Shown here: positions 1,045 to 61,850 of the stretch, piece by piece
Layout of the letters: each line of letters begins with the position of its first letter
Position numbering within the stretch: the first letter of the stretch is position 1
Assembly (NCBI GenBank): GCA_005798335.1
Contig: SYJV01000175.1
Coordinates: 3,280-67,279, forward strand
Source: Planctomycetaceae bacterium
GTDB taxonomy: Bacteria; Planctomycetota; Planctomycetia; Pirellulales; Pirellulaceae
Reading direction: 5' to 3'
Length of the DNA: 64,000 bases
The notes under the pieces: generated by a model
What the model was told of the DNA's origin: nothing
The model's database searches: none
What the model saw: the letters and a program-made list of their open reading frames with translations, nothing else
Position numbers and translations under genes: made by a program

Positions 1045-1199
1045 CGCGTTCACTTCCCTGCACACTACCAGATTCGTTTTACCCGCAGTCGCAGGCGAGG
1101 AAAAGTCAACTCCGCAAACAGCCCCATCATATTGTTGCGAGCAATATCAGCGAGTAAATCTAGTCGAACCACCACCAAACAATCTAATTGCCAAACAAT

Positions 1200-6017: not shown

Positions 6018-6156
6018 CTAAGGCGAGCGGCAGATGGGAATTTACCAAGGCCTCAGCGAATACAAGCCCGATGCGCAAGCGAGTGCGTCAATCCTGGCAT
6101 ACACTCGCTTGCGCTTCGGGCTTGTATTGGTAAGAAACCATCTGCCGCTCGCCTAA
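6018..6156. repeat. Hairpin repeat family A, full copy 1 (139 bp)
   Basis: Sequence ctaaggcgagcggcagatgg...ccatctgccgctcgcctaa. It has an outer ~17-bp stem and an inner 27-bp stem (aatacaagcccgaTgcgcaagcgagtg / cactcgcttgcgcTtcgggcttgtatt) around the loop cgtcaatcctggcata. It matches the copy at 13940..14078 at 138/139 positions. Confidence 0.9.
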
Positions 6157-6290
6157 GGGAACTGTTCCGTAAATCGACCAACGCTTACTCTCTGGGCCGC
6201 ATGTGCAATTGAGTTACCACGATGAGGCATTCGTCGTGTAGCAACTGCCGGCACTGTTTCGACAGTGGCAGGAATATACTCATGGGGCCG

Positions 6291-6347
6291 CGTCATTGCT
6301 TGCATAGGATATTGACAAGCCAGAAACCTATCCCACATTCGTTGAAC
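6291..6347. repeat. Degenerate right-half remnant of MITE family B
   Basis: cgtcattgcttgcataggatattgacaagccagaaacctatcccacattcgttgaac aligns to the right half of the 122-bp element at 57257..57378 with about 8 mismatches in 57. It lacks the terminal ggtattg. It abuts the stop codon (6347-6349) of the cyclase gene. Confidence 0.7.
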
Positions 6348-8212
6348 TACTTGCCTGGTAATTGGATAACGCCTTGCCAACCGCTGGGAGGTGTACGCTG
6401 GTGTTGCGCAATAAATACTGTCAAGAAGTCTTTCACGCGGTCTTCTGCAGGGACTTGATGTAGAAAGCGAAATGCCTCGGGCCAGCGTCCTTCGAGAAAA
6501 TGTTCCAACGCATTTTCGTAAGCTTCGATGTGCGCATCGGTCAGAAAACTGTCTTCGCCGCAAGGGGGCAGCAGTTCGCTGACCACCAGCGGCGTATTCA
6601 TCCCAAACGGTTGCACCTTCGCGACGCGACGAATTCGCAGAATGCTGGTGGGAACTTTTTCGCGTACCCAAGTCGCAGTGGGTTCGTCGACCAAGATCGA
6701 GGCTTGCAATTGTTTGGTCATCGTTTCCAAGCGCGCTGCGAGATTGACGACTGGACCAAACACCGTGACTTTGACTTGATCTGTGGTTCCGATGCGACCG
6801 GCGACGGCTGGCCCGGAGGATATGCCAATGCCGGCGCGAAAATCGGCTAGCGGATGCGCGCTCTGCTGAGCGGTTTTCTCAAACTCCGATCGAATCGCTA
6901 AAGCAGCTTGACACGCGTGCTGAATCGATTGTTGCTCTGCGATTGGCCAACCCCAGAACCCCATCGCTGCGTCACCATGAAAATCGCCGACGACACCACC
7001 GTTGCGCAGGATATGATGTGTCATTATGCCCAGCGCATCACTCACACGCTGTAGCAATTCCAGCAATCGATCCGCTGAATCTTCGCTGCGCTTGGAAAAC
7101 CCTCGCAGGTCGCAGAACATGACCGTTACATCGGTTTGCCTTGGCGATAATACTTGGTCGGGATCGCGCTGTGACAACGCCTCCAGCACCACTGGCGCGA
7201 AGAAGTGTCGCAAGCTATCTTGTCGACGTTGCAGCGATCGGATCTGCCGCAGTGCTCCCAAAGTAGTCCCCGTAAGTTCTGCGAACTTCAAATCGTCCTG
7301 TAACGCATCGACTTCATCGGCACCATCCGATGCCAGCATTTGTCCAGGAGCCGCGAAATCACCCGCGACGTAGATCGCCCACGCGGGACAAGCGTCTGAC
7401 AGGATCGGAGTACAAAACGCCCAATCGACGTTTTCACTTTGCGTGAACGACTCGCTACCAACTGCGCGATTCCAGATGTGCAAAACGCTTTCGCTGGTCT
7501 GTACTGCGCGGCGTACAAGCTGGCCGCTGGGAGTAAAATGATGTCCCGAAAGGGATCGGCAATCCCAATGCAAGATATCGAGACTGTCCGCGCTAGTCCG
7601 CGGGTCGGGACGTGTTTCCTTAACAATCTTGGACGCGCCCGAATCGCCGAGCACCACTTCGGCCAACTTTTCATCCGGATGCGACTTGAGTTTCACGATG
7701 GCCACAAAAGCAGCTTGCGGAATTCCTAGCAACATGACATTGACGATGCGCATGCACAGTTCTTCGTCACTGCTACTGCCGGCGATGATTTCAGGTAACT
7801 TGCCCAACACTTCAATACGCCGGTCGGCGTCGCGGTAGCGATTTTGGCGCAGCAGGTGGGCAGAAAATGTCTGCTCATTAAAAGCAGGCGAGATCTGCTG
7901 TGAGAAGTGAACTTGTTGGTCAACTAACGTAAACGTAGTCTGACCGATCACAAAGTGCTCGCCGATCTGGACCCCGAAGCGTTCTCGCTGCTGACCGCGA
8001 TAGAAGATTGCGTTGCGAGCCTCGGACAACTTCTGCACTACCAATTGATTACCATTCCAGCAAATCACTGCGTGTTTGCGCGAAATTCGATCGTCCCACA
8101 CTGTTGCCCACGGCTCCGCCGTTCGCCCTAATACGACTTCACCGCCAGTCGGAGGCAGCCCGCGTCGCCAGCGATCTTGAGGACGTGAGCCTTGGGCAAT
8201 CAAATCGGGCAT
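6347..8212 (-). CDS. FHA domain-containing class III adenylate/guanylate cyclase
   Basis: FHA-like N-terminus (VVLGRTAEPWATVWDDRISRKHAVICWNGNQLVVQKL), a central GAF-like region, and a C-terminal cyclase domain (VTVMFCDLRGFSKRSE, GDAAMGFWGWP, RAGIGISSGPAVAGRIGT, VFGPVVNLAARLE). The start is set to ATG 8212 (MPDLIAQG); the ORF extends to 8263. Confidence 0.82.
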   Translation of the reverse strand: MPDLIAQGSRPQDRWRRGLPPTGGEVVLGRTAEPWATVWDDRISRKHAVICWNGNQLVVQKLSEARNAIFYRGQQRERFGVQIGEHFVIGQTTFTLVDQQVHFSQQISPAFNEQTFSAHLLRQNRYRDADRRIEVLGKLPEIIAGSSSDEELCMRIVNVMLLGIPQAAFVAIVKLKSHPDEKLAEVVLGDSGASKIVKETRPDPRTSADSLDILHWDCRSLSGHHFTPSGQLVRRAVQTSESVLHIWNRAVGSESFTQSENVDWAFCTPILSDACPAWAIYVAGDFAAPGQMLASDGADEVDALQDDLKFAELTGTTLGALRQIRSLQRRQDSLRHFFAPVVLEALSQRDPDQVLSPRQTDVTVMFCDLRGFSKRSEDSADRLLELLQRVSDALGIMTHHILRNGGVVGDFHGDAAMGFWGWPIAEQQSIQHACQAALAIRSEFEKTAQQSAHPLADFRAGIGISSGPAVAGRIGTTDQVKVTVFGPVVNLAARLETMTKQLQASILVDEPTATWVREKVPTSILRIRRVAKVQPFGMNTPLVVSELLPPCGEDSFLTDAHIEAYENALEHFLEGRWPEAFRFLHQVPAEDRVKDFLTVFIAQHQRTPPSGWQGVIQLPGK

Positions 8213-8405
8213 AATCGTTGTAAGACCAAAGCAACAACAAACAGAGAAAGTTACGCTTTGCACAATTTTGGGGCGTCAATCCATCCAGCTTATTCCTTTT
8301 GAAGCATTAGAACAATCGTAGCAAATCGTCTTTGCCAGCATTGCGGAAGTTACACGATGGTTTCATGCAATCGCGACTGCCCAATCTTGCCCACCCAGAT
8401 AATGG

Positions 8406-13939: not shown

Positions 13940-14078
13940 CTAAGGCGAGCGGCAGATGGGAATTTACCAAGGCCTCAGCGAATACAAGCCCGATGCGCAA
14001 GCGAGTGCGTCAATCCTGGCATACACTCGCTTGCGCTTCGGGCTTGTATTGGTAAGAAACTATCTGCCGCTCGCCTAA
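13940..14078. repeat. Hairpin repeat family A, full copy 2 (139 bp)
   Basis: Same orientation as copy 1 and 138/139 identical to it; the single difference is c->t in aaacCatctg. It ends 33 bp downstream of the stop of ORF 14111..14569(-). Confidence 0.9.
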
Positions 14079-14110
14079 TGGCTAACGGGACTCCGAATTG
14101 AAGAAGCTGC

Positions 14111-25247: not shown

Positions 25248-25483
25248 ATCAAATCCAACCGTTTGAGGCAATTTTTAGAGCGGCAAATACAACTTTGTGC
25301 CGCTCAAACTTCCGATGAGTATACGGAAGCCATCGCGGGTGACAAACAAATAACTGACATTCTGGCCATTTTTTTAGAATTTTTAGCAGCCCCCCTGGCA
25401 GCATGCCGTTCGGCCGCCAGGATCAGCGCGACCAGTTTTTCAACGGTGCTTACAATTACAAGCACGACACGCAACTGAAAGTG

Positions 25484-25561
25484 TGCCAGGAATGACATAC
25501 TCGCTTGCGCATCGGGCTTGTATTCGCTCAGCCATGCTAAAATCCCATTCTGCCGCTGGCC
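25484..25561. repeat. Diverged half copy of hairpin repeat family A (inverted orientation)
   Basis: tgccaggaatgacatactcgcttgcgcatcgggcttgtattcgct... matches the reverse complement of the loop plus left arm of family A, at roughly 80 percent identity. It ends 3 nt from the stop codon at 25565-25567. Confidence 0.7.
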
Positions 25562-25564
25562 TTG

Positions 25565-52930: not shown

Positions 52931-53072
52931 GGTCTAATTGCAATACCGTTCAACGAACGTGGGATAAGTTTCCAGCTTGTCAATATTTTGTGCAAGCAAT
53001 GGCGAAACTCCGCTACAGGTTGACAAGCTGGAAGCTTATCCCACGTTCGTTGAACGGTATTGGGTCTAATTG
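52931..53072. mobile_element. MITE family B copy 1: 122-bp element (52941..53062) with 10-bp target-site duplication ggtctaattg
   Basis: Terminal inverted repeats caataccgttcaacgaacgtgggataag(t/c)ttccagcttgtcaa of ~43 bp. The direct repeats ggtctaattg at 52931-52940 and 53063-53072 are identical. The element is too short to code for a transposase. Confidence 0.85.
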
Positions 53073-53086
53073 GACGAAGTTTGTTT

Positions 53087-54919
53087 TTACTTTGAATCGA
53101 TAGGTTGCTCGGTCGTTTTGGCCTTAGTTTGGTCCGCTGGTTTGATTTGCTTGTCTGCTTCTTCTTTTTTCTTTTGCGCGGCGTCCGCGTCCTTTTTCTT
53201 TTGCTGCTGGTCAGCAATCTTCAAATGCACTTCGGCTTGTTCTGCATTGCCTTCCAGTTTGTAAGCTTCGGCAATTCGTTGGTGATACTCGGGACATAGT
53301 TTGCTACCGCGACCAGCCAACTCGATTGCAAACTCCAATTGGGTAATCGCTTCGGAATATCGTTTCTGCTGGATATACACATAGCCAAGCGTATCTCGAA
53401 AATCCGGAATGAAGGGCGCGATGCGCACTGCCAGCTCTGCATGCTCACGAGCCTTCTCAATCTCGTTGGGCTTGTGCATGGCCAATGTGTATGCCAAGTT
53501 GTTGTTATACTGCGGGTTGCCGGGTTGGCTAGCGAGCAGTTTCCGGCAGTGATCAATGGATTTGTCGTAGTTTTCTTGCAAATAGTAAGCTTCTGACAAC
53601 ATGGCATGAGTCAATGGCGTCGCGGTTCCTTCCGCCAAGACTTCTTTTAACTGATTGATAAGATGCTCGGGTGGTTTGTCTCCGCCGATGCGCACCAAGA
53701 TGGCGATTTCCTCGGATATGCCAGGATTCGTTGGGTCTACACGCATGGCTTGATCTAACAATTCAATGTTGGCTTGCCAAGTTGGTTGGTCACCTGTGAT
53801 AATCTCAAGCGAGCGTTTGAAGCGCACGCGCAGCACGTCGGAAAGACCTCGGCTGAGCGACTTGATTTCTTCAGGCTTCAGTCCCGGTCGACTCAAGCCC
53901 TGGTCGAGCAATTGTGTTGCCGTCACCAGGTCGTCGTTGGTCGAGCTCTTGTATGAGATATGTACTTGTGCGAGCATCAACCGATCGCGAGGAGTGTCTT
54001 CACCTTTTGAGATTAGATCTCCAAAGTAAATTTTGGCTCGCCGAGCGGCATTGTCGGCCTCCGCTTTGCTGTCGGATGCCTGAGCGGCTTCGAGGACCTG
54101 CAGATAGTACTCGGGCTGCAGCGTGGCGGCACGCTTCAGCAAGTCGATAGCGCGCAGAAAATTCTTCTCCTGAAACGCGAACTGCGCGGCCAGCATCAGC
54201 AGTTGCGGCGGAGTAGTGGAAAATTTAGTCGATTGATCCAGATGGTGCCTTAATACTGGAAGTTGTTCCGTGGTAATATTTCCCAGGCGCAGCATGTTGT
54301 ATGCAATCAATGCATGCGAACGAGAGTGCCCTTCTTTGTTATCGGGAGCAATTTCCTTCAGCAAATTGATTCCAGCAGTTAACGATCCTTGTTGGCTCAT
54401 CATCGCGGCGATGACAAACATGATCTCAGGGTTATCCGACTGCAGTTGCTGAGCGCGACGAAAAACTGCCTCGGTGAATCGCGAAATTTTGACTTCTTTT
54501 TTTGGCTCGGCAGCCTTCGGAGCAGCACTTTTCTGTGTCTCGCTGGATTTTTTGCTATCGCGCGCTGGGCTCGTTTTTCCGCCAGGCGTGCGCTTGCCCT
54601 TGTCATCCGATTTTGGCTCAGCAGCGGCCGCTGCCGCTTCAGCATCAAGCTCGTCGAGATTGATTTCTGTTTTTTCTCCGGTGCCTCCAAAAGCCCAATC
54701 GTCACCGATTTTCTTCAGCTCTTTCTCGCCGATTGATAAGTACCATCCAGCCAACGGTTGCTTGGGCAGCAAGCTACCCCAGGTCGACATCATGAACAGC
54801 GTTACAGCGATCAGGCCGGGCAGCGCCAGCAGAGATATTCGGCCCCACGCGCGGGTAATTAACCAATCAAGAAAACAACCGGAGGCGTTCACCAGAATGG
54901 CGCCAGGTGCCAGATGCAT
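53087..54919 (-). CDS. membrane-anchored TPR repeat protein with K/A/E-rich low-complexity regions
   Basis: An N-terminal TM helix (ISLLALPGLIAVTLFMMSTW) and a lysine/alanine-rich linker are followed by multiple TPR-like units (e.g. AYYLQENYDKSIDHCRKLLASQPGN, YIQQKRYSEAITQLEFAIEL). The tail is basic and acidic. It starts 50 bp downstream of the exosortase-like gene. Confidence 0.75.
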   Translation of the reverse strand: MHLAPGAILVNASGCFLDWLITRAWGRISLLALPGLIAVTLFMMSTWGSLLPKQPLAGWYLSIGEKELKKIGDDWAFGGTGEKTEINLDELDAEAAAAAAEPKSDDKGKRTPGGKTSPARDSKKSSETQKSAAPKAAEPKKEVKISRFTEAVFRRAQQLQSDNPEIMFVIAAMMSQQGSLTAGINLLKEIAPDNKEGHSRSHALIAYNMLRLGNITTEQLPVLRHHLDQSTKFSTTPPQLLMLAAQFAFQEKNFLRAIDLLKRAATLQPEYYLQVLEAAQASDSKAEADNAARRAKIYFGDLISKGEDTPRDRLMLAQVHISYKSSTNDDLVTATQLLDQGLSRPGLKPEEIKSLSRGLSDVLRVRFKRSLEIITGDQPTWQANIELLDQAMRVDPTNPGISEEIAILVRIGGDKPPEHLINQLKEVLAEGTATPLTHAMLSEAYYLQENYDKSIDHCRKLLASQPGNPQYNNNLAYTLAMHKPNEIEKAREHAELAVRIAPFIPDFRDTLGYVYIQQKRYSEAITQLEFAIELAGRGSKLCPEYHQRIAEAYKLEGNAEQAEVHLKIADQQQKKKDADAAQKKKEEADKQIKPADQTKAKTTEQPIDSK

Positions 54920-54968: not shown

Positions 54969-56747
54969 CTACGGAGACGTCTTTAGGATGCGCGATTTTA
55001 GGGCAGCGGAGGCTTCGACAACGAATGTTTGGTAGTCACCGCGGCGGCTATCGGAAATGGCTTTGCCTGAATCTAGAAATAAACGCGTTTGATAGGTTAC
55101 CAGATCTTTTGCGGATTTGCCAAGCAATCGCCCGACAAGAGTTCGGGATAGTCGCCGATTCCAGTCCGCGCGCCATCCGCTTTCTGGAACGGCCGGATTT
55201 CCGCTGGAGTCAAACGCAGTGTACCAACCATAAGCAACTGACTTCAAGTCGTTGACAAATTCGACCTCGACGATGGGCCATGGTTGGCTGCCACTTTCCC
55301 CTGCAATCGCCAATCTTTTTGGCGCTGCGTTGAGTCTCCAACCTGTGCCCGGCATGACCAACCAATGCTGTTGTTGTCCAACATACGGAAAGTCAAAAGC
55401 AACCACCGGTAATCCGTCGGTACCCGAATATCGCCATGCTAATAGGTGCGTTTTGTTCCCAATCCCAAACTCGTGTTCGGAACGATCAACACCCTGCTGT
55501 TTCAGTCCTCGCGACTCGATCGGCAATGTGTCCAGCGCACCGATCACCGCTAATTGCTCTTCTGCGTAGGCAGGCACTACAACGCCAGCCGACGGACTTG
55601 GCAGCAATGCCCCGATGACTCCCAGCACCGACACCAGCAGCGAGCCAATCATCAACGGAATTCGCCAAACGCTGGCTGCCCAGGGATCGGTTGCTCGAAT
55701 CGTGTCACGGTAATTGGGTCCCTTCCATGCGGTCGTTTGTTTTTTCTGCGTGGTCGCTTCATCGTCCCCAAAATAATCGTCTTGCTCTTCTTGGTCGGCT
55801 CCTTGGAAGGTCAGATTTCCTGGCCACATTACGACGCGATTGTAAAAACCATGCAAACCGACGGTCGCTTGTTGAGACAATTCAACCGGCAGCGGCTCAA
55901 ACAGAAACGATAATGCGTCAATCAAGATCACCAAGAACAGGAATGACAATACGAACAGACCGATATTCAGAAAGACTCCAGTTGCCCCAATCGACCAGTC
56001 GGCTGCAAAGGATTCGCGCCCCCAGATCAGCAAGAGTATCTTCAAAGAGTTGCTCAGCCACCCCAAGATTGGAATCGTTGCCAAAGTGAAAAAACTCATA
56101 ACGAACGGGCGACGCATCCACAGCAGCAGCGTCAGTGCACAAAAAGCCAACAAATAAACGCTATTCCACGAGAAAGCGTGCGAAGCCAAATCGAGGCGTT
56201 CGCTGCGCAAGTCTAATCGCAACTCTTGCAGCAAATTCGGAGTACCAATCAAATCGAGCAACGGACTCAACATAGTCGCCGCCTTGCGATAAAGCATGTC
56301 GACTAAACGTGTATCCAGCCCCGCAGGTGGCCAGGTAACCCACAACAGACCGGTGAGCGCAATTAATCGCGTCCAGGGGACTATTCCAAACCAAACTAGT
56401 ATCCAACCCGTTACTAGCATGATTGCAGCAAGCTGGCTCGTCGCAGGTGAAATCATGAACGCAGCGGCAAGGCTCATGGCGATCCCTGCTACGGTAAATC
56501 CTATCGAAAACACTCTTCGCAAATGTGATGCCGCAAATCCCACTCGCGGTTCAGTGGCAATAAATGCGGCGAAAACCAGCCAGGCGACGAAATAGAATCG
56601 CAGGTGAGGTTTTCCCCAAAGGGCTGTCATCTGCACCACTAGCAGCGGAATAATGGATACTATTCCGCTTAGGATTAACCAATTTGTAGCTGTGGTCCAG
56701 CGAGAATTGGTTGCGGTCGGCTGCGGTATATTTCCTGGTTCTGCCAT
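54969..56747 (-). CDS. exosortase-like polytopic membrane protein with EpsI-like C-terminal domain
   Basis: The N-terminal ~300 aa are multi-TM with an exosortase-like layout (WPPAGLDTRLVDMLYRKAATMLSPLLDLIGTPN...LDLASHAFSWNSVYLLAFCALTLLLWMRRP...IPILGWLSNSLKILLLIW). The C-terminal soluble domain contains QQHWLVMPGTGW, reminiscent of the EpsI H-x-P-x-x-C-x-P-G-x-GW motif. The start is ATG 56747. Confidence 0.55.
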   Translation of the reverse strand: MAEPGNIPQPTATNSRWTTATNWLILSGIVSIIPLLVVQMTALWGKPHLRFYFVAWLVFAAFIATEPRVGFAASHLRRVFSIGFTVAGIAMSLAAAFMISPATSQLAAIMLVTGWILVWFGIVPWTRLIALTGLLWVTWPPAGLDTRLVDMLYRKAATMLSPLLDLIGTPNLLQELRLDLRSERLDLASHAFSWNSVYLLAFCALTLLLWMRRPFVMSFFTLATIPILGWLSNSLKILLLIWGRESFAADWSIGATGVFLNIGLFVLSFLFLVILIDALSFLFEPLPVELSQQATVGLHGFYNRVVMWPGNLTFQGADQEEQDDYFGDDEATTQKKQTTAWKGPNYRDTIRATDPWAASVWRIPLMIGSLLVSVLGVIGALLPSPSAGVVVPAYAEEQLAVIGALDTLPIESRGLKQQGVDRSEHEFGIGNKTHLLAWRYSGTDGLPVVAFDFPYVGQQQHWLVMPGTGWRLNAAPKRLAIAGESGSQPWPIVEVEFVNDLKSVAYGWYTAFDSSGNPAVPESGWRADWNRRLSRTLVGRLLGKSAKDLVTYQTRLFLDSGKAISDSRRGDYQTFVVEASAALKSRILKTSP

Positions 56748-57134
56748 CAACTGCTATCCCTACTACTCCCGGTTAAAGCCCTCGTGCTGTTCAACTAATC
56801 AATCTGACTCGTCGGCACGCGGCAGGATCCATCAAAACGCGTTGATAAACGTCACTGCCCAGTCACGTCCGAGCCAGCTCGTTCGAACGGCTTCGTGGTT
56901 CAAGGGGGAGCGTATCGCGCAACCACCCTTCGATACACTATACGCCTTATTCAAGGGATCGTGTTGATTCGCTGTGTTTTATTCACTTTTCTGGCTCTCT
57001 TACAAAAGGACTAATTGTTACCAACTTGTTTCGCAACACCGGCAGGGATCGAATCAACGGTTGTTTCCGCTAAGATTAGAAGGGTGCTTTAACCTCACTT
57101 TTTCGGCAAACTCGCCAAATTCGGAAACACGCTC

Positions 57135-60100
57135 ATGATCCCGCTCATATTTAAGCGGCCCGCGATTTGCTTGTTTAACCCGCAGCCGCAGGCGAGGACT
57201 ATCTACGTTTACGCGATTTACCGCAGTTGTCCTCGCCTGTGGCTGCGGGTTAAACACAATACCGTTCAACGAACGTGGGATAAGCTTCCAGCTTGTCAAC
57301 CTGTAGCGGAGTTTCGCCATTGCTTGCACAAGATATTGACAAGCTGGAAGCTTATCCCACGTTCGTTGAACGGTATTGGGGTTAAACAAGCGAATCGCGG
57401 GCCGCTTGGGGTCATCTTCCTACTTGGCGCAATTCTCAGTCTGAGCAATCCTGAGCGAGCTCAAGGCGTTCAGACGGGCCCGCCAGAAAGCTTAGAAGTG
57501 CTGTTCTGGGGCGACAACGGTCATCATCAACCAGCCGCGCGCGCTCAGCAGCTCATACCAGTTCTGGCAAGTCGCGGAATCCGCGTTCAGTATTCAGACA
57601 ATTCCGATGACCTGAATCTCGATAACTTGAAGAAGTTCCATGGCCTAATACTGTACGCCAACACGACGCGCATCGAACCTGCACAAGAATCGGCCTTGCT
57701 GGAGTATGTTGCGCAAGGCGGCGGTTTTGTTCCTTTACACTGCGCATCGTATTGTTTCTTGAATTCATCCCCCTACATCGATTTGGTGGGCGCCCAGTTT
57801 CTAAAACACGGCGCAGAAACGATGGCTACCAAGATCGTTGCACCCGATCACCCGATCATGCGCGGTTTTTCGGGATTTCAGAGCTTCGATGAAACCTACA
57901 TTCACACCAAACACAACGATCGCAATCGAATCATCTTGGAAGTTCGCGAGCAGGGTGGCCAGGCTGAAGGCAGATCCGCCGAGCCCTGGACATGGGTTCG
58001 CACCCACGGATCAGGTCGAGTTTTTTACACTGCCTGGGGACACGATCATCGCACTTGGGGGCATCCGGGGTTTCATGCTCTTGTCGAACGAGGAATTCGT
58101 TGGGCGTGTGGCAGCGACCAGGCACTAAATCAACCCTACCTCGATCAAGAAGTATTTGCAGTACCAGAAATGACCACACTGGCTGGCGACTTGGTACCTT
58201 TTGAATACGAAGATGTGGGACCAAAAATTCCCAACTATCCTGTAAGTGAACGTTGGGGAGTCTTGGGCCAGAACAAGTCACGCATGCAGAAACCGCTGCC
58301 GCCTTCGCATTCGATCAAACACTTCGTTACACCTGAGAACTTCCATTTGGAACTGTTCGCCTCAGAACCCGAGATTCAAGGCAAGCCCATTGCTATGAAT
58401 TGGGACCATCGAGGCAGACTGTGGCTGTGCGAGACCATCGATTATCCCAACGAATTGCGCCCGCCAGGTGAAGGCCGCGACCGGATTCGCATTTGTGAAG
58501 ATACCAACGGAGACGGACGAGCGGACAAATTCACCGTATTTGCCGAAAACCTCAGCGTACCCACGGCCATCGAGTTCTACCGTGACGGCGCAATTGTACA
58601 CGCGGGAGTCGAAACGCTGTTCCTGCGCGATACTAACGGCGATGATCGCGCCGACCAGCGCGATGTGCTGATTACTGGTTGGGCCATGAACGATACGCAC
58701 GGCGGTGTCAGCAATTTCCAATACGGACTCGATAATCGCTATTGGGCCATGCAAGGCTACAACAACTCGCGCCCTAAATTTGCAGGCGGCAGCCATCCCG
58801 GATTCCGGCAAGGTCCCTTCAACTTTGTGGTGGACGGCGTTCAGGCACCAGCAGTTCCAAGTGTCGAATTCGTCCGTTCGACGACGAATAACAGTTGGGG
58901 ATTGGGAATCAGCGAAGAAGGGTTGGTATTCGCCTCGACTGCTAATCGAGCCCCCAGTTTTTTTGTGCCGATTCCAAATCGTTACTATGAACGAGTACGA
59001 GGCTGGAGCGCATCTCTAATCGCCGATGCAATCTTTGACACGCACTTGTTCAAGCCGATCACTCAAAATGTGCGGCAAGTCGATCATCACGGGGGATACA
59101 CCGCTGGTGCTGGGCACGCACTCTATACAGCGCGGAATTATCCACAGTCTTGGTGGAACCGCGTGGCGTTTGTGTGCGGTCCAACGGGTCACTTGGTAGG
59201 TACCTTTGTCTTGCGTCGCGAGGGAGCCACCTATCGCGACACCAACCCGTTCAACCTGCTGGCAAGCGACGATGAATGGTCCGCTCCCATCATGGCCGAA
59301 GTTGGACCGGACGGAAATGTGTGGGTCATCGATTGGTACAACTTTATTGTCCAGCACAACCCGACGCCCCAAGGTTTTTCCACCGGTCAAGGCAATGCCT
59401 ACGAAACGGATTTGCGCGACAAGAAACATGGACGCATCTATCGCGTCGTTTACGATGGTCCCGACGCTGGGCACGCACCTTCGCCGGATCTTTCGTCAGA
59501 AAATGCGGCAGGCTTGGTCACCGCACTATCGCATCCTAACCGGCTGTGGAGACGACATGCACAGCGCTTGCTGGTGGAACACAATCATAGGGATGTCATC
59601 GGCCAGTTGTTAAGACTAGTCAAAGAGCCGTCAATGGATGCCGCTGGTCTGAATGTAGGAGCTATTCACGCGCTGTGGACATTGAAGGGAATCGGAGCCA
59701 TCAACGAGCAAGCGAAAGATGTAATGCAAGCGATCTCGGCCGCACTTCGGCATCAGTCTGCGGGAGTTCGCCGCAATGCCGTTCTCGTCCTGCCACCATC
59801 AGAGCACTCGATCAGTGCTATTGAAAACGCAGGCATCCTAGCCGATTCCAATCTTCAAGTTCGCCTGGCGGCGTTTCTCGCACTAGCCGATATGCCGGAG
59901 AATGCTCAGGCAGGCGAATTGCTGGCTCGCGCGGCACATGTGCCAGAAAACGTTGCGGATCGATGGTTAAAAGAAGCGATCATTTGCGCCGGAGCTAGCC
60001 ATGCCAGTTCGTTTCTAGCTGGACTTTTGGGAGCGAACCTTCAGTCGAGCACCTCAACCGCAGGAGGCGAAGTCGCCGTGCCAACTGGCAGAATCGAAAT

Positions 60101-61850
60101 CGCCACCGTGTTGGCTGAACACTTGGCGCGCGGCAAACCGAATACACAGCAGCTTACTCAACTCCTGTCGAAGGCTCGCGCTGCTCATCCTACGATCGCA
60201 CAAGCTGTAATTCGGGGACTGGCGCTCGGCTGGCCTCGCGACTATCAACCTGAAATGACGCAGATCCTCGAAGCGGAACTTGATCAGCTCGTTGTTCAAC
60301 TGCCGATATCCGCGCGCGGTCAGCTTGTGCAACTGGCAGGGAACTGGGGGAGCGACAAACTCAAGAAATACGCCGCTGAAATAAAGCGCGACTTGATGGA
60401 GTCAGTAACCAATGCCAGCCTGTCCGAACAACAGAGAATTGCTGCTGCCCAAAATGTCATCGACATTTCCCCCAACGACGCGGAAGTGGTCAGCCAACTG
60501 GTGCAACAAGTGACACCGCAATTGTCGCCTGCCGTTGCTTCAGGGATTATTCGCGCTCTGTCTGCTAGTCGAGCAACCAATTTGGCTCGGACGCTCGTTA
60601 GTAGTTGGGGACGGCTGACTCCCTCGATGCGCGCTGATGCGATGACGGTGTTACTGGCGCGACCTGAGTCGACCGCGCACATGATGGAAGCAGTCTCGCA
60701 AGGTTTCTTGACGATATCCGACCTATCACTCGACCAGCGGCAAACGCTGCGCACGCATCCAGACCGTGATATTCGTACAGCAGCCAATCGCATGCTCGCC
60801 AATACTGGCGGCTTGCCAAATGCGGACCGCCAAAAAGTAATCGACGAATTTCGCTCGGCGACTCTTGCGACAGGCAATCCAACGCTTGGCAAACAGATCT
60901 TTGTGAAAAACTGCGGCAACTGCCATAGGCACTCGGGCGAAGGCCAGGAGATTGGTCCAGACCTGACGGGAATGGCGGTGCATCCCAAAGCGGAACTCTT
61001 GATCCACATACTGGATCCGAGCAGAAGTGTAGAAGGGAATTTCCGTCGCTATACGGTTTTGACCAACGACGGAAAAGTTATCGCGGGCATGCTGGCCGCT
61101 GAGTCGCTGACAGCGATCGAATTAATCGATGGAGAAGGCAAGCGTCATTCGATCTCGCGTGTTGACGTCGAGCAATTATCCTCGACCAACAAATCCGTGA
61201 TGCCCGAAGGAATTGAAACACAGATCAAGCAACCGGACATGGTCGACTTACTGGAGTTTCTAACCAGCAAGGGACGCTTTGTTCCGTTGCCGCTGGGGAG
61301 CGTCGCGACAGCGGTCAGCACCAAAGGTCTATTCCACGACGGCGATAACGGTCCGGATCGGATGGTGTTCGATGACTGGAAACCGAAAGTCTTTGGCGGC
61401 GTTCCCTTTCATGTGATCGATCCGATTGGCAAGTCTCGTCCAAACATTGTGTTGCTGAATGGTCCCAACGGATCATTGCCGCCCAAAATGCCGCGCAGCG
61501 TGACTTTGCCATGCAATATGGTTCTCAAGAGCCTGCATATGCTCAGCGGCGTCAGCGGCTGGGGCCATCCCGCGTCGCGTGCCGGTTCAACCAGTTTGAT
61601 TGTCCGGTTCCATTATATGGACGGTCAAACCGAAGATCATGAACTGAGAAACGGCGTGCATTTCGCTGACTACATTCGTAGAATCGACGTTCCTGAATCT
61701 CAATTCGCATTCCGTTTGCGCGGTCAACAAATTCGCTATCTGGCCGTAAGTCCCAAACAACGCACTGTTGTGCGTGATATCGAACTGTTGAAAGGAAACG
61801 ATTCCAGCGCACCAATCGTAATGTCGATGACGGCCGAACAATTTCAATAG
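57135..61850 (+). CDS. ThuA-like domain / PVC-type membrane-bound dehydrogenase domain / HEAT-like repeats / cytochrome c (CxxCH) fusion protein
   Basis: ThuA-like region (LEVLFWGDNGHHQ...GGGFVPLHCAS...FYTAWGHD), dehydrogenase N-domain (FHLELFASEPEIQGKPIAMNWDHRGRLWLCET...DTNGDGRADK), heme c site (GKQIFVKNCGNCHRHSGEG), then a ~250-aa C-terminal domain. The 5' end is problematic: codons 7-91 are encoded by palindromic repeats. The alternative start TTG 57366 would give MNGIGVKQANRGPLGVIFLLGAILSLSNPERAQG. Confidence 0.8.
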   Translation: MIPLIFKRPAICLFNPQPQARTIYVYAIYRSCPRLWLRVKHNTVQRTWDKLPACQPVAEFRHCLHKILTSWKLIPRSLNGIGVKQANRGPLGVIFLLGAILSLSNPERAQGVQTGPPESLEVLFWGDNGHHQPAARAQQLIPVLASRGIRVQYSDNSDDLNLDNLKKFHGLILYANTTRIEPAQESALLEYVAQGGGFVPLHCASYCFLNSSPYIDLVGAQFLKHGAETMATKIVAPDHPIMRGFSGFQSFDETYIHTKHNDRNRIILEVREQGGQAEGRSAEPWTWVRTHGSGRVFYTAWGHDHRTWGHPGFHALVERGIRWACGSDQALNQPYLDQEVFAVPEMTTLAGDLVPFEYEDVGPKIPNYPVSERWGVLGQNKSRMQKPLPPSHSIKHFVTPENFHLELFASEPEIQGKPIAMNWDHRGRLWLCETIDYPNELRPPGEGRDRIRICEDTNGDGRADKFTVFAENLSVPTAIEFYRDGAIVHAGVETLFLRDTNGDDRADQRDVLITGWAMNDTHGGVSNFQYGLDNRYWAMQGYNNSRPKFAGGSHPGFRQGPFNFVVDGVQAPAVPSVEFVRSTTNNSWGLGISEEGLVFASTANRAPSFFVPIPNRYYERVRGWSASLIADAIFDTHLFKPITQNVRQVDHHGGYTAGAGHALYTARNYPQSWWNRVAFVCGPTGHLVGTFVLRREGATYRDTNPFNLLASDDEWSAPIMAEVGPDGNVWVIDWYNFIVQHNPTPQGFSTGQGNAYETDLRDKKHGRIYRVVYDGPDAGHAPSPDLSSENAAGLVTALSHPNRLWRRHAQRLLVEHNHRDVIGQLLRLVKEPSMDAAGLNVGAIHALWTLKGIGAINEQAKDVMQAISAALRHQSAGVRRNAVLVLPPSEHSISAIENAGILADSNLQVRLAAFLALADMPENAQAGELLARAAHVPENVADRWLKEAIICAGASHASSFLAGLLGANLQSSTSTAGGEVAVPTGRIEIATVLAEHLARGKPNTQQLTQLLSKARAAHPTIAQAVIRGLALGWPRDYQPEMTQILEAELDQLVVQLPISARGQLVQLAGNWGSDKLKKYAAEIKRDLMESVTNASLSEQQRIAAAQNVIDISPNDAEVVSQLVQQVTPQLSPAVASGIIRALSASRATNLARTLVSSWGRLTPSMRADAMTVLLARPESTAHMMEAVSQGFLTISDLSLDQRQTLRTHPDRDIRTAANRMLANTGGLPNADRQKVIDEFRSATLATGNPTLGKQIFVKNCGNCHRHSGEGQEIGPDLTGMAVHPKAELLIHILDPSRSVEGNFRRYTVLTNDGKVIAGMLAAESLTAIELIDGEGKRHSISRVDVEQLSSTNKSVMPEGIETQIKQPDMVDLLEFLTSKGRFVPLPLGSVATAVSTKGLFHDGDNGPDRMVFDDWKPKVFGGVPFHVIDPIGKSRPNIVLLNGPNGSLPPKMPRSVTLPCNMVLKSLHMLSGVSGWGHPASRAGSTSLIVRFHYMDGQTEDHELRNGVHFADYIRRIDVPESQFAFRLRGQQIRYLAVSPKQRTVVRDIELLKGNDSSAPIVMSMTAEQFQ
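57153..57407. repeat. Composite palindrome: 123-bp hairpin element (family C) interrupted by MITE family B
   Basis: The outer arms aagcggcccgcgatttgcttgtttaacccgcagccgcaggcgaggac and gtcctcgcctgtggctgcgggttaaaca[...]agcgaatcgcgggccgctt match 45/47 once 57257..57388 is removed. The loop is tatctacgtttacgcgatttaccgcagtt. Confidence 0.85.
57247..57388. mobile_element. MITE family B copy 2: 122-bp element (57257..57378) with 10-bp target-site duplication gggttaaaca
   Basis: It matches the reverse complement of copy 1 at 120/122 positions. Its 43-bp terminal inverted repeats are perfect. The direct repeats gggttaaaca at 57247-57256 and 57379-57388 are identical. It is inserted in the right arm of the family C palindrome. 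Confidence 0.88.

Follow-up and report, generated by a model that had tools for sequence, protein, structure and literature searches.

In-frame nested palindromic repeats in the signal-peptide region of a planctomycete ThuA/cytochrome c gene, compared with Rickettsia palindromic elements

The Rickettsia palindromic elements (RPE), reportedly described by Ogata et al. 2000, are among the closest counterparts of the structure discussed here: two nested palindromic repeats, a hairpin unit (hairpin H) and MITE B (a miniature inverted-repeat transposable element), lying in frame near the 5′ end of an open reading frame (ORF) in a stretch of 64,000 nucleotides from a Planctomycetaceae bacterium (contig SYJV01000175.1; hereafter, the whole stretch is called the window). 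RPE-4 and RPE-6 are mentioned in PMC3733652, and the same work gives the features by which a repetitive extragenic palindrome (REP) is recognized, namely a short, imperfectly palindromic sequence bearing an unpaired GTAG or CGTC tag, an extragenic location and a link to REP-associated tyrosine transposases (RAYT). REP elements and RAYT transposases are also treated in PMC3116915. Bacterial MITEs and their part in protein evolution have been reviewed (PMC3184786, PMC10969869), and MITEs of Coxiella have been covered as well (PMC5896051). The enterobacterial MITEs RU-1, RU-2 and RU-3 contain open reading frames and have been fused into annotated genes (Delihas 2007, PMC2759123). In Y. pestis YPO1552, RU-2 makes up part of the predicted signal peptide (residues 1-41), while homologues of this protein carry unrelated signal peptides (PMC2759123). 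An earlier reading of the window (the original prediction) had presented the in-frame survival of palindromic repeats as established for Rickettsia, a statement that the enterobacterial fusions show to be too narrow.

The ORF in question encodes a ThuA/DUF7133/HEAT/cytochrome c protein, and the two repeats form a composite of 255 bp between its start codon and the hydrophobic core of its predicted signal peptide. The reading favoured here, to which we would give a probability of roughly 0.6, is that two successive in-frame insertions entered the signal-peptide region, are read through from ATG 57135, and have remained by survivorship. The feature itself is real, and sequence comparisons support its RPE-like interpretation, which extends well beyond this locus.

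The composite and the region it occupies

The host ORF opens with ATG 57135, downstream of an in-frame TAA at 57090 and of in-frame codons (57093-57134) among which there is no ATG, GTG or TTG, and ends at 61850. Its product, protein P0121, has a near-identical twin (P0254) and its closest named relatives in Aureliella and Pirellulaceae. Pfam places ThuA at residues 122-324, DUF7133 at 390-773 and Cytochrom_C at 1251-1282 of the 1571-aa product, HEAT also being present. From the start codon the frame passes through MIPLIF (18 nt), crosses the composite at 57153..57407 (85 codons) and continues as GVIFLLGAILSLSNPERAQG-VQTGPPESLEVLFWGDNGHH, with no stop along this path and with VQ directly following GVIFLLGAILSLSNPERAQG.

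The composite is built from two inverted repeats, an outer one at 57153-57181 / 57379-57407 (29 nt, 97% complementary) and an inner one at 57172-57199 / 57229-57256 (28 nt, 96% complementary), for whose arm sequences 0 matches are expected in 100 shuffles. The region is predicted to fold at -222 kcal/mol (z = -17). On re-reading the sequence, the coordinates and numbers that the original prediction gave for the ORF, the composite, the MITE, its target-site duplication and the hairpin all hold. Removal of MITE B with one copy of the duplication does leave a hairpin of 123 bp, as had been claimed, but this is not a single repeat unit: only the inner 87 bp (57171-57256 plus 57389), reading (L)FNPQPQART...PRLWLRVK in the gene frame, belong to a dispersed family. 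The outer 18-bp arms (57153-57170 and 57390-57407) were seen at no other locus, either among the metagenome loci or in the scans, and scans of viral contigs with the outer arm and with MITE B gave no matches. Rfam contained no matching family, only sub-threshold look-alikes of microRNA precursors, that is, generic hairpins. The two flanks of a family hairpin proved not to be, as a rule, inverted copies of one another: the mean score across the family was 6.0 versus 5.3 in controls, with only the window copy and a nested case at locus L031 standing out.

An assembly artefact was also considered and is ruled out, because an independent assembly (contig L040, ENA assembly ERZ27257035) shows the same structure, with 2 differences over 11,102 aligned bases. 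Both differences (53014 and 57326) are loop positions of the window's two MITE B copies, and they could be real strain variation or a mixing of consensus between repeat copies.

Alignment of orthologues, which had been put forward as a check on the original prediction, finds the 85 residues encoded by the composite in 0 of 240 homologues (120 N-terminal homologues and 120 full-length orthologues), a syntenic orthologue included. The homologues have ordinary signal peptides, with 17-71 aa ahead of a conserved L.LLFLGDNGHH motif. The median orthologue length is 1479 aa versus 1571 here, a figure that becomes 1486 once the 85 residues are subtracted, and the orthologues align over 98-100% of the 1480 residues that follow the insert, at up to 74% identity. 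The closest of them (P0122, 74% identity, at locus L041) is syntenic, as judged by the 66% identity of the divergent neighbour upstream; a 5′ palindrome is absent from it, and inverted repeats of at least 14 nt are limited there to one 14-nt palindrome far upstream of the start. Comparison with these sequences supports the view that the composite is an insertion into an ancestral signal-peptide coding region.

In the first 125 residues of the product, the only strong Kyte-Doolittle windows are those starting at aa 89-94, so that aa 89-104 form the sole strong hydrophobic segment. This core, GVIFLLGAILSLSNPERAQG, aligns in position with the signal peptides of the homologues, directly ahead of L.LLFLGDNGHH, and the peptide encoded by the insert in front of it is strongly basic (15 K/R versus 2 D/E, net +13). 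By sequence inspection, the presequence has what a Sec signal peptide calls for, namely a basic n-region, a hydrophobic core of 10-15 residues and small residues at -3/-1, with SLS or AQG predicted after the core. Its length departs from the usual range of about 20-35 residues, being about 104-111 residues from ATG 57135, and would come within it only with an internal TTG start. Other hairpins placed between a start codon and a signal peptide were looked for and none was convincing; the hairpins at locus L020 lie upstream of a twin-arginine (Tat) signal, probably in the 5′ untranslated region.

A c-type cytochrome domain requires export for heme attachment during cytochrome c maturation. In silico excision of the composite leaves ATG 57135 as the sole canonical start in frame from the stop at 57090 up to the hydrophobic core. 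Past the composite, the first such start is GTG 57498; it falls in strand 1 of the ThuA domain, and its use would remove the signal peptide. Since no canonical start is available between the composite and the ThuA domain, some codons derived from the repeats have to be translated if the protein is made, exported and working.

Probable translation through the repeats

The anatomy is consistent with a history in two steps. In a first step, a member of a widespread planctomycete hairpin family would have inserted after codon 6, ahead of the hydrophobic core; this copy has a stem extended by 18 bp on both sides, probably through the copying of one flank in inverted orientation. In a second step, the 122-bp MITE B would have inserted at the hairpin end NGNNTAAACR, with a 10-bp target duplication. 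As both insertions are multiples of three and bring no in-frame stop, the ORF stays open from ATG 57135 with 85 extra residues. The insert would fall within the n-region of the signal peptide, a part that tolerates changes in length and sequence, and cleavage after export, if it occurs, would leave the mature enzyme unchanged. Ribosomes would probably read through the palindromes from ATG 57135, and survivorship would explain what is seen today: frame-breaking insertions in needed genes would be lost, and the coding-compatible ones would remain.

Whether ATG 57135 is still used can be approached through the predicted fold of the full-length transcript, in which the pairing probability over positions -15..+12 is 0.53 for ATG 57135, upstream of the composite, and 0.99 for TTG 57171 in the left arm of hairpin H. 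Within MITE B the values are 0.48 for TTG 57324 (loop), 0.79 for TTG 57336 and 1.00 for TTG 57366 (both in the right arm). The original prediction had named TTG 57366 as the alternative start. That codon is in frame and would give MNGIGVKQANRGPL..., but with its initiation region fully paired in the predicted fold it becomes the least likely of the candidates.

Initiation at one of the three TTG codons of the MITE, with the repeat supplying both the start and a basic n-region (e.g., MNGIGVKQANRGPL-GVIFLL...) and the open frame back to ATG 57135 being incidental, is unlikely, although several observations speak for it. It would yield an ordinary signal peptide of 34-48 aa with K/R before the core, comparable to the 17-71 aa of the homologues; TTG 57324, in the loop, lies 12 nt after a GGAG; and at locus L001 a GTG arises at the junction of MITE and target duplication, shortly ahead of a signal peptide, so MITE-adjacent starts are plausible in this organism. 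On the other hand, TTG 57336 and TTG 57366 lie in a 50-bp stem, and TTG 57324 reads TTC in the second assembly (L040), where position 57326 is C. In addition, no sigma-70-like promoter able to start a transcript inside the MITE was found in 56700-57600 by a scan that covers this promoter type only, and the stop-free frame back to the ATG would have to be a coincidence of probability about 0.07-0.22. ATG 57135 would most likely still be the start, with the 85 residues acting as a long basic n-region; this choice is favoured because the ATG is accessible in the predicted fold, TTG 57324 is lost in the second assembly, no sigma-70-like promoter was found inside the MITE, the insert is basic, and the native core is the sole hydrophobic segment.

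Several points weigh against read-through from ATG 57135 as the outcome of two tolerated insertions. Survival in frame at this one site departs only weakly from chance, as the joint probability of about 0.07-0.22 combines 1/3 for the phase of the MITE, 2/3 for the hairpin frames in this orientation and, optionally, 1/3 for the hairpin length, and the latter may itself be a multiple of 3 by chance. The predicted -222 kcal/mol structure, with perfect stems of 28-50 bp, would probably be a target of RNase III unless ribosomes keep the stems open, and it could also impede translation. MITE B is 100% identical to another copy, and selection may not yet have had time to act on so recent an insertion. 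The presequence of 111 aa goes far beyond the longest stretch found before the motif in homologues (71 aa). Lastly, the N-terminus obtained by excision, MIPLIFGVIFLL..., is without a basic residue, which leaves the exact ancestral sequence and the boundaries of the elements uncertain. One of the outer arms could be native gene sequence, as in MIPLIF-KRPAIC-GVIFLL, a more canonical signal peptide, in which case the other arm would be an inverted copy of it produced by template switching on the hairpin.

Some of these points would equally suit a young pseudogene, that is, a gene inactivated or severely down-regulated by a pair of recent insertions, neutral or mildly deleterious, and whose intact frame is a matter of luck. 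The identity of the MITE to another copy implies a very recent insertion, MITE B does disrupt genes elsewhere (a sulfatase, P0243, lacks the first 140 profile positions), and to the extreme predicted mRNA structure and a presequence length unprecedented among homologues can be added the abundance of planctomycete paralogues (4506 matches), so loss could be tolerated. Nevertheless, there is no frameshift or stop across the 1571 codons of the host ORF, the frame has been kept by two independent events, and the hairpin stands in the same reading frame as in ten other intact ORFs. Inactivation seems improbable, and read-through from ATG 57135 is preferred over it.

Hairpin H and MITE B outside this gene

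The family of hairpin H was ascertained in public metagenome contigs by exact match to a 25-mer of the inner arm, which occurs at 37 loci from many different samples and yields 36 distinct full units. The arms, of about 28 bp, are conserved (TCGTTTAACCCGCAGCCGCAGGCGAGGA and its complement) and pair perfectly over 27-29 bp in nearly all copies, the loops vary in length between 9 and 108 nt and show no sequence relationship, and the flanks are unique. Ten of the 36 distinct units (28%) are intragenic in the sense of having at least 80 open codons on each side, a proportion that is to be read with the exact 25-mer ascertainment, the orthology of some units and the open-frame definition in mind. 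In the intragenic units the left arm always reads FNPQPQAR, in the same frame as in the window, and the right arm LAxGxGLN or PRLRLRVK. Pfam domains are found on both sides of these units, conserved domains of many exported proteins harbour the family, and the host genes include an alpha-2-macroglobulin (A2M), FG-GAP/UnbV proteins, a sulfatase and an alpha/beta-hydrolase-PSCyt1-PSCyt2-PSD1 protein with at least 3 units. The PSCyt2 match spans 247 residues in the protein of locus L008 versus 209 in that of locus L026, which has no H unit inside this domain.

Loops with a length divisible by 3 are over-represented (22:9:5, p = 0.0014), and the loop class that would place the TAA of the arm in frame is depleted, also among the units not scored as intragenic (15:6:5, p = 0.03). 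The original prediction had pointed out that both inserted lengths are multiples of 3, and so they are at this locus, but the 123 bp of the hairpin is specific to it, given the variable loops of the family, and only the MITE, with its 132 bp, always preserves the frame. The RPE-like reading itself is borne out elsewhere, where both hairpin H and MITE B are found in frame inside real genes.

Two other explanations for hairpin H, an integron attC site and a REP doublet forming a hairpin (REPIN) moved by a RAYT transposase, are very improbable and were rejected on structure and location. The attC core consensus is RYYYAAC / GTTRRRY, and the stem ends GTTTAAC (57173-57179) and GTTAAAC (57249-57255) do fit it. 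However, pairing of the arms is perfect over 27-29 bp and leaves neither bulged bases nor an unpaired spacer, and the units lie inside conserved multidomain genes rather than after promoterless cassettes. As in a REPIN, hairpin H has two inverted conserved repeats of about 28 nt around a variable spacer, and solo arms occur; in contrast to REPs, which are extragenic, 28% of the units are intragenic, a single arm is not palindromic, having CGCAG repeated directly within it, its end TCGTTTAAC is paired, there is no unpaired GTAG/CGTC tag, and hairpin H is not known to be associated with RAYT.

MITE B has terminal inverted repeats of 50 nt (96% complementary; 43 nt without the bases adjacent to the duplication) with ends CAATACCGTTCAACGAACGTGGGATAAGC, and five full copies, 98-100% identical, are known, two of them in the window (57257-57378 and 52941-53062) and the others at L001 10012-10133, L002 10036-10157 and L038 8491-8612; partial copies exist too. 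The 10-bp target duplications differ in sequence: GGGTTAAACA for the 57257 copy, GGTCTAATTG for the second window copy (52931/53063), TGTTTAGTCG at L001 and CGTTTACACC at L002, that of L038 being imperfect in its left copy. The element thus has what defines a MITE, namely terminal inverted repeats, a target duplication of fixed length and varying sequence, dispersed near-identical copies, a size of 122 bp and no transposase ORF. No transposase-bearing copy with MITE B ends was found in the approximately 0.3 Mb of sequence examined. As 122 + 10 = 132, every insertion adds exactly 44 codons, and the element is stop-free in one of the three phases in either orientation.

The nesting seen in the host gene is repeated at other loci. 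MITE B sits at the same end of other H hairpins (GGGTTAAACG) at L033 and L038, the predicted protein P0247 displays the same arrangement at the peptide level (SFNP, then the MITE, then AFNPQPQ), and the remaining MITE B duplications fit NGNNTAAACR on either strand. Judged from these sequences, the nesting is not a coincidence, and MITE B has a target preference for the end of hairpin H.

An exhaustive search of 1.84 billion representative proteins finds the peptide of MITE B in eight predicted proteins; a six-frame peptide search with MITE B recovered at least 3 proteins, an undercount, as this search appears to drop proteins much longer than the query. P0251 carries the element in frame within a DUF1501 domain, whose 90 matched profile positions take up 131 residues; P0252 carries it in frame downstream of a Fic domain. 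In P0241 and P0242 it lies within 12 codons of the annotated start, and the true start of both may be downstream of it. At L001 (10001-10160), the GTG (G|TGTTTAGTCG) is made up of the last base of the MITE and the target duplication and shares its frame with the signal peptide that follows, MRWSLAVGLF...; the ATG used originally now lies 132 nt further upstream, and the call for the database protein begins there and runs through the MITE.

Partial or rearranged copies of both elements were also recorded. A solo H arm at L002 11049-11074 occupies an intergenic spacer, 28 nt before the start of exbD, and this arm and the one at window 1076-1101 may be remnants of full hairpins. At L031 4050-4160, hairpin H has its 10-nt ends tandemly duplicated on both sides (CGTTTAACCC CGTTTAACCC ... 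GGGTTAAACG GGGTTGAACG), which could be due either to MITE B excision leaving the target duplication or to a hairpin nested in a hairpin. In L008 (3438-3577 and neighbouring units), L025 and L020 (1766-1887), partial arms (AACCGCAGCCGCAGGCGAGGAC) are tandemly expanded into EPQPQART / DPQPQA motifs within large proteins; H arms can therefore amplify locally in frame. A diverged half of MITE B (the right arm and part of the loop, about 86% identity) lies at window 6291-6361, abutting the 3′ end of the minus-strand ORF 6347..8263.

The coordinates of the features are collected in Table 1. The window also harbours repeats of other kinds. A palindromic family of about 142 bp, with nested inverted repeats of 27-31 nt per copy and a sequence unrelated to hairpin H and MITE B, is present at 6018-6159, 13940-14081 and 25449-25563, two of the copies being 99% identical and the third 79% identical and inverted. 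Between 44000 and 52000, several families of diverged 32-37-nt direct repeats are irregularly spaced at 0.3-2.8 kb, which suggests that a very large gene with repetitive domains lies upstream of the second copy of the MITE.

Table 1. Positions in the window of the host ORF, the parts of the composite and related repeat copies
Feature	Positions	Strand	Basis or remark
Host ORF, ThuA / DUF7133 / HEAT / cytochrome c protein	57135..61850	+	1571 aa as called; Pfam
Start codon and five codons (MIPLIF), taken as ancestral	57135..57152	+	Read from sequence
Left outer arm AAGCGGCCCGCGATTTGC, locus-specific 18-bp inverted repeat, reads KRPAIC	57153..57170		Inverted-repeat search; outside family consensus
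Hairpin H: left arm 57171-57199, loop 57200-57228, right arm 57229-57256, last base 57389	57171..57256		Inverted-repeat search and family alignment
Left copy of 10-bp target-site duplication GGGTTAAACA, the end of the hairpin H right arm	57247..57256		Direct-repeat search
MITE B, 122 bp, 43-50-nt terminal inverted repeats, 36-nt loop, reads NTVQRTWDKLPACQPVAEFRHCLHKILTSWKLIPRSLNGI	57257..57378	+	Inverted repeats and copies
In-frame TTGs inside MITE B, candidate internal starts (57324 loop; 57336, 57366 right arm)	57324..57368	+	Frame reading
Right copy of target-site duplication GGGTTAAACA	57379..57388		Direct-repeat search
Hairpin H last base (57389) and right outer arm 57390-57407 GCGAATCGCGGGCCGCTT, reads (Q)ANRGPL	57389..57407		Inverted-repeat search
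Hydrophobic core and cleavage region of signal peptide (GVIFLLGAILSLSNPERAQG)	57408..57467	+	Kyte-Doolittle windows; alignment with homologues
Second full MITE B copy (52941-53062), opposite orientation, own target-site duplication GGTCTAATTG	52931..53072	-	Intergenic, just past 3′ end of minus-strand ORF 53087..54919
Solo arm of hairpin H (GTTTTACCCGCAGTCGCAGGCGAGGA)	1076..1101	+	Intergenic, between two minus-strand ORFs

Comparison with described elements

No description of these elements in planctomycetes was found in the literature searched, which does not prove that none exists. It may tentatively be proposed, with somewhat less than even confidence, that hairpin H represents an undescribed planctomycete-wide class of coding-compatible palindromic elements, with arms conserved over many environments, freely evolving loops that keep the frame, frequent in-frame residence in exported multidomain proteins and a dedicated MITE that homes to their ends. 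If this is true, it would be, next to Rickettsia, a second case in which selfish DNA resides in protein-coding genes, independent and on a large scale, and hairpin H would be a possible source of new linkers and signal-peptide extensions. The locus also offers a test of how far the n-region of a bacterial signal peptide can lengthen and of whether ribosomes pass perfect stems of 28-50 bp. For annotation, start calls and protein lengths beside these repeats need checking, and the repeat-derived peptides (FNPQPQAR..., NTVQRTWDKLPACQ...) will seed spurious homology between unrelated proteins.

MITE B resembles other bacterial MITEs in its terminal inverted repeats, fixed-length target duplication, small size, absence of transposase coding capacity and near-identical dispersed copies, and it differs from them in adding exactly 44 codons per insertion and in its marked preference for the end of another repeat family. 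The comparison with the enterobacterial RU elements is particularly close with regard to location, but RU-2 contributes the hydrophobic part of the YPO1552 signal peptide, whereas the repeats of the window lie upstream of a retained native core. Furthermore, there is no nesting in the YPO1552 case, and the element families and target duplications of the RU MITEs differ from those of MITE B.

With RPE, hairpin H shares the essentials: short palindromic repeats lie in frame in protein-coding genes and leave the ORF intact, many copies are present per clade, and the encoded peptide falls between or within domains. Thus, both a many-copy palindrome and in-frame copies in conserved genes are found here, whereas membership of RPE-1 to RPE-8 and a Rickettsia host are not. 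The phylum is different, and the sequence family is called unrelated on the grounds of its hosts, set apart by planctomycete hallmark genes (PSCyt1, PSD1, DUF1501). RPE are conserved over their full length, while hairpin H is conserved only in its arms of about 28 bp, around loops of 9-108 nt. In addition, the window copy resides in a signal peptide predicted to be cleavable and has a second element nested in it. The element works like an RPE and is not a member of that group. What had been a textbook oddity of Rickettsia, with scattered occurrences in enterobacteria and among Coxiella MITEs, now appears with the same outcome in free-living planctomycetes with large genomes; the locus is a new example of a known phenomenon, and the hairpin family a new variant of it, distinguished by its conserved arms, frame-keeping loops, intragenic residence and end-homing MITE.

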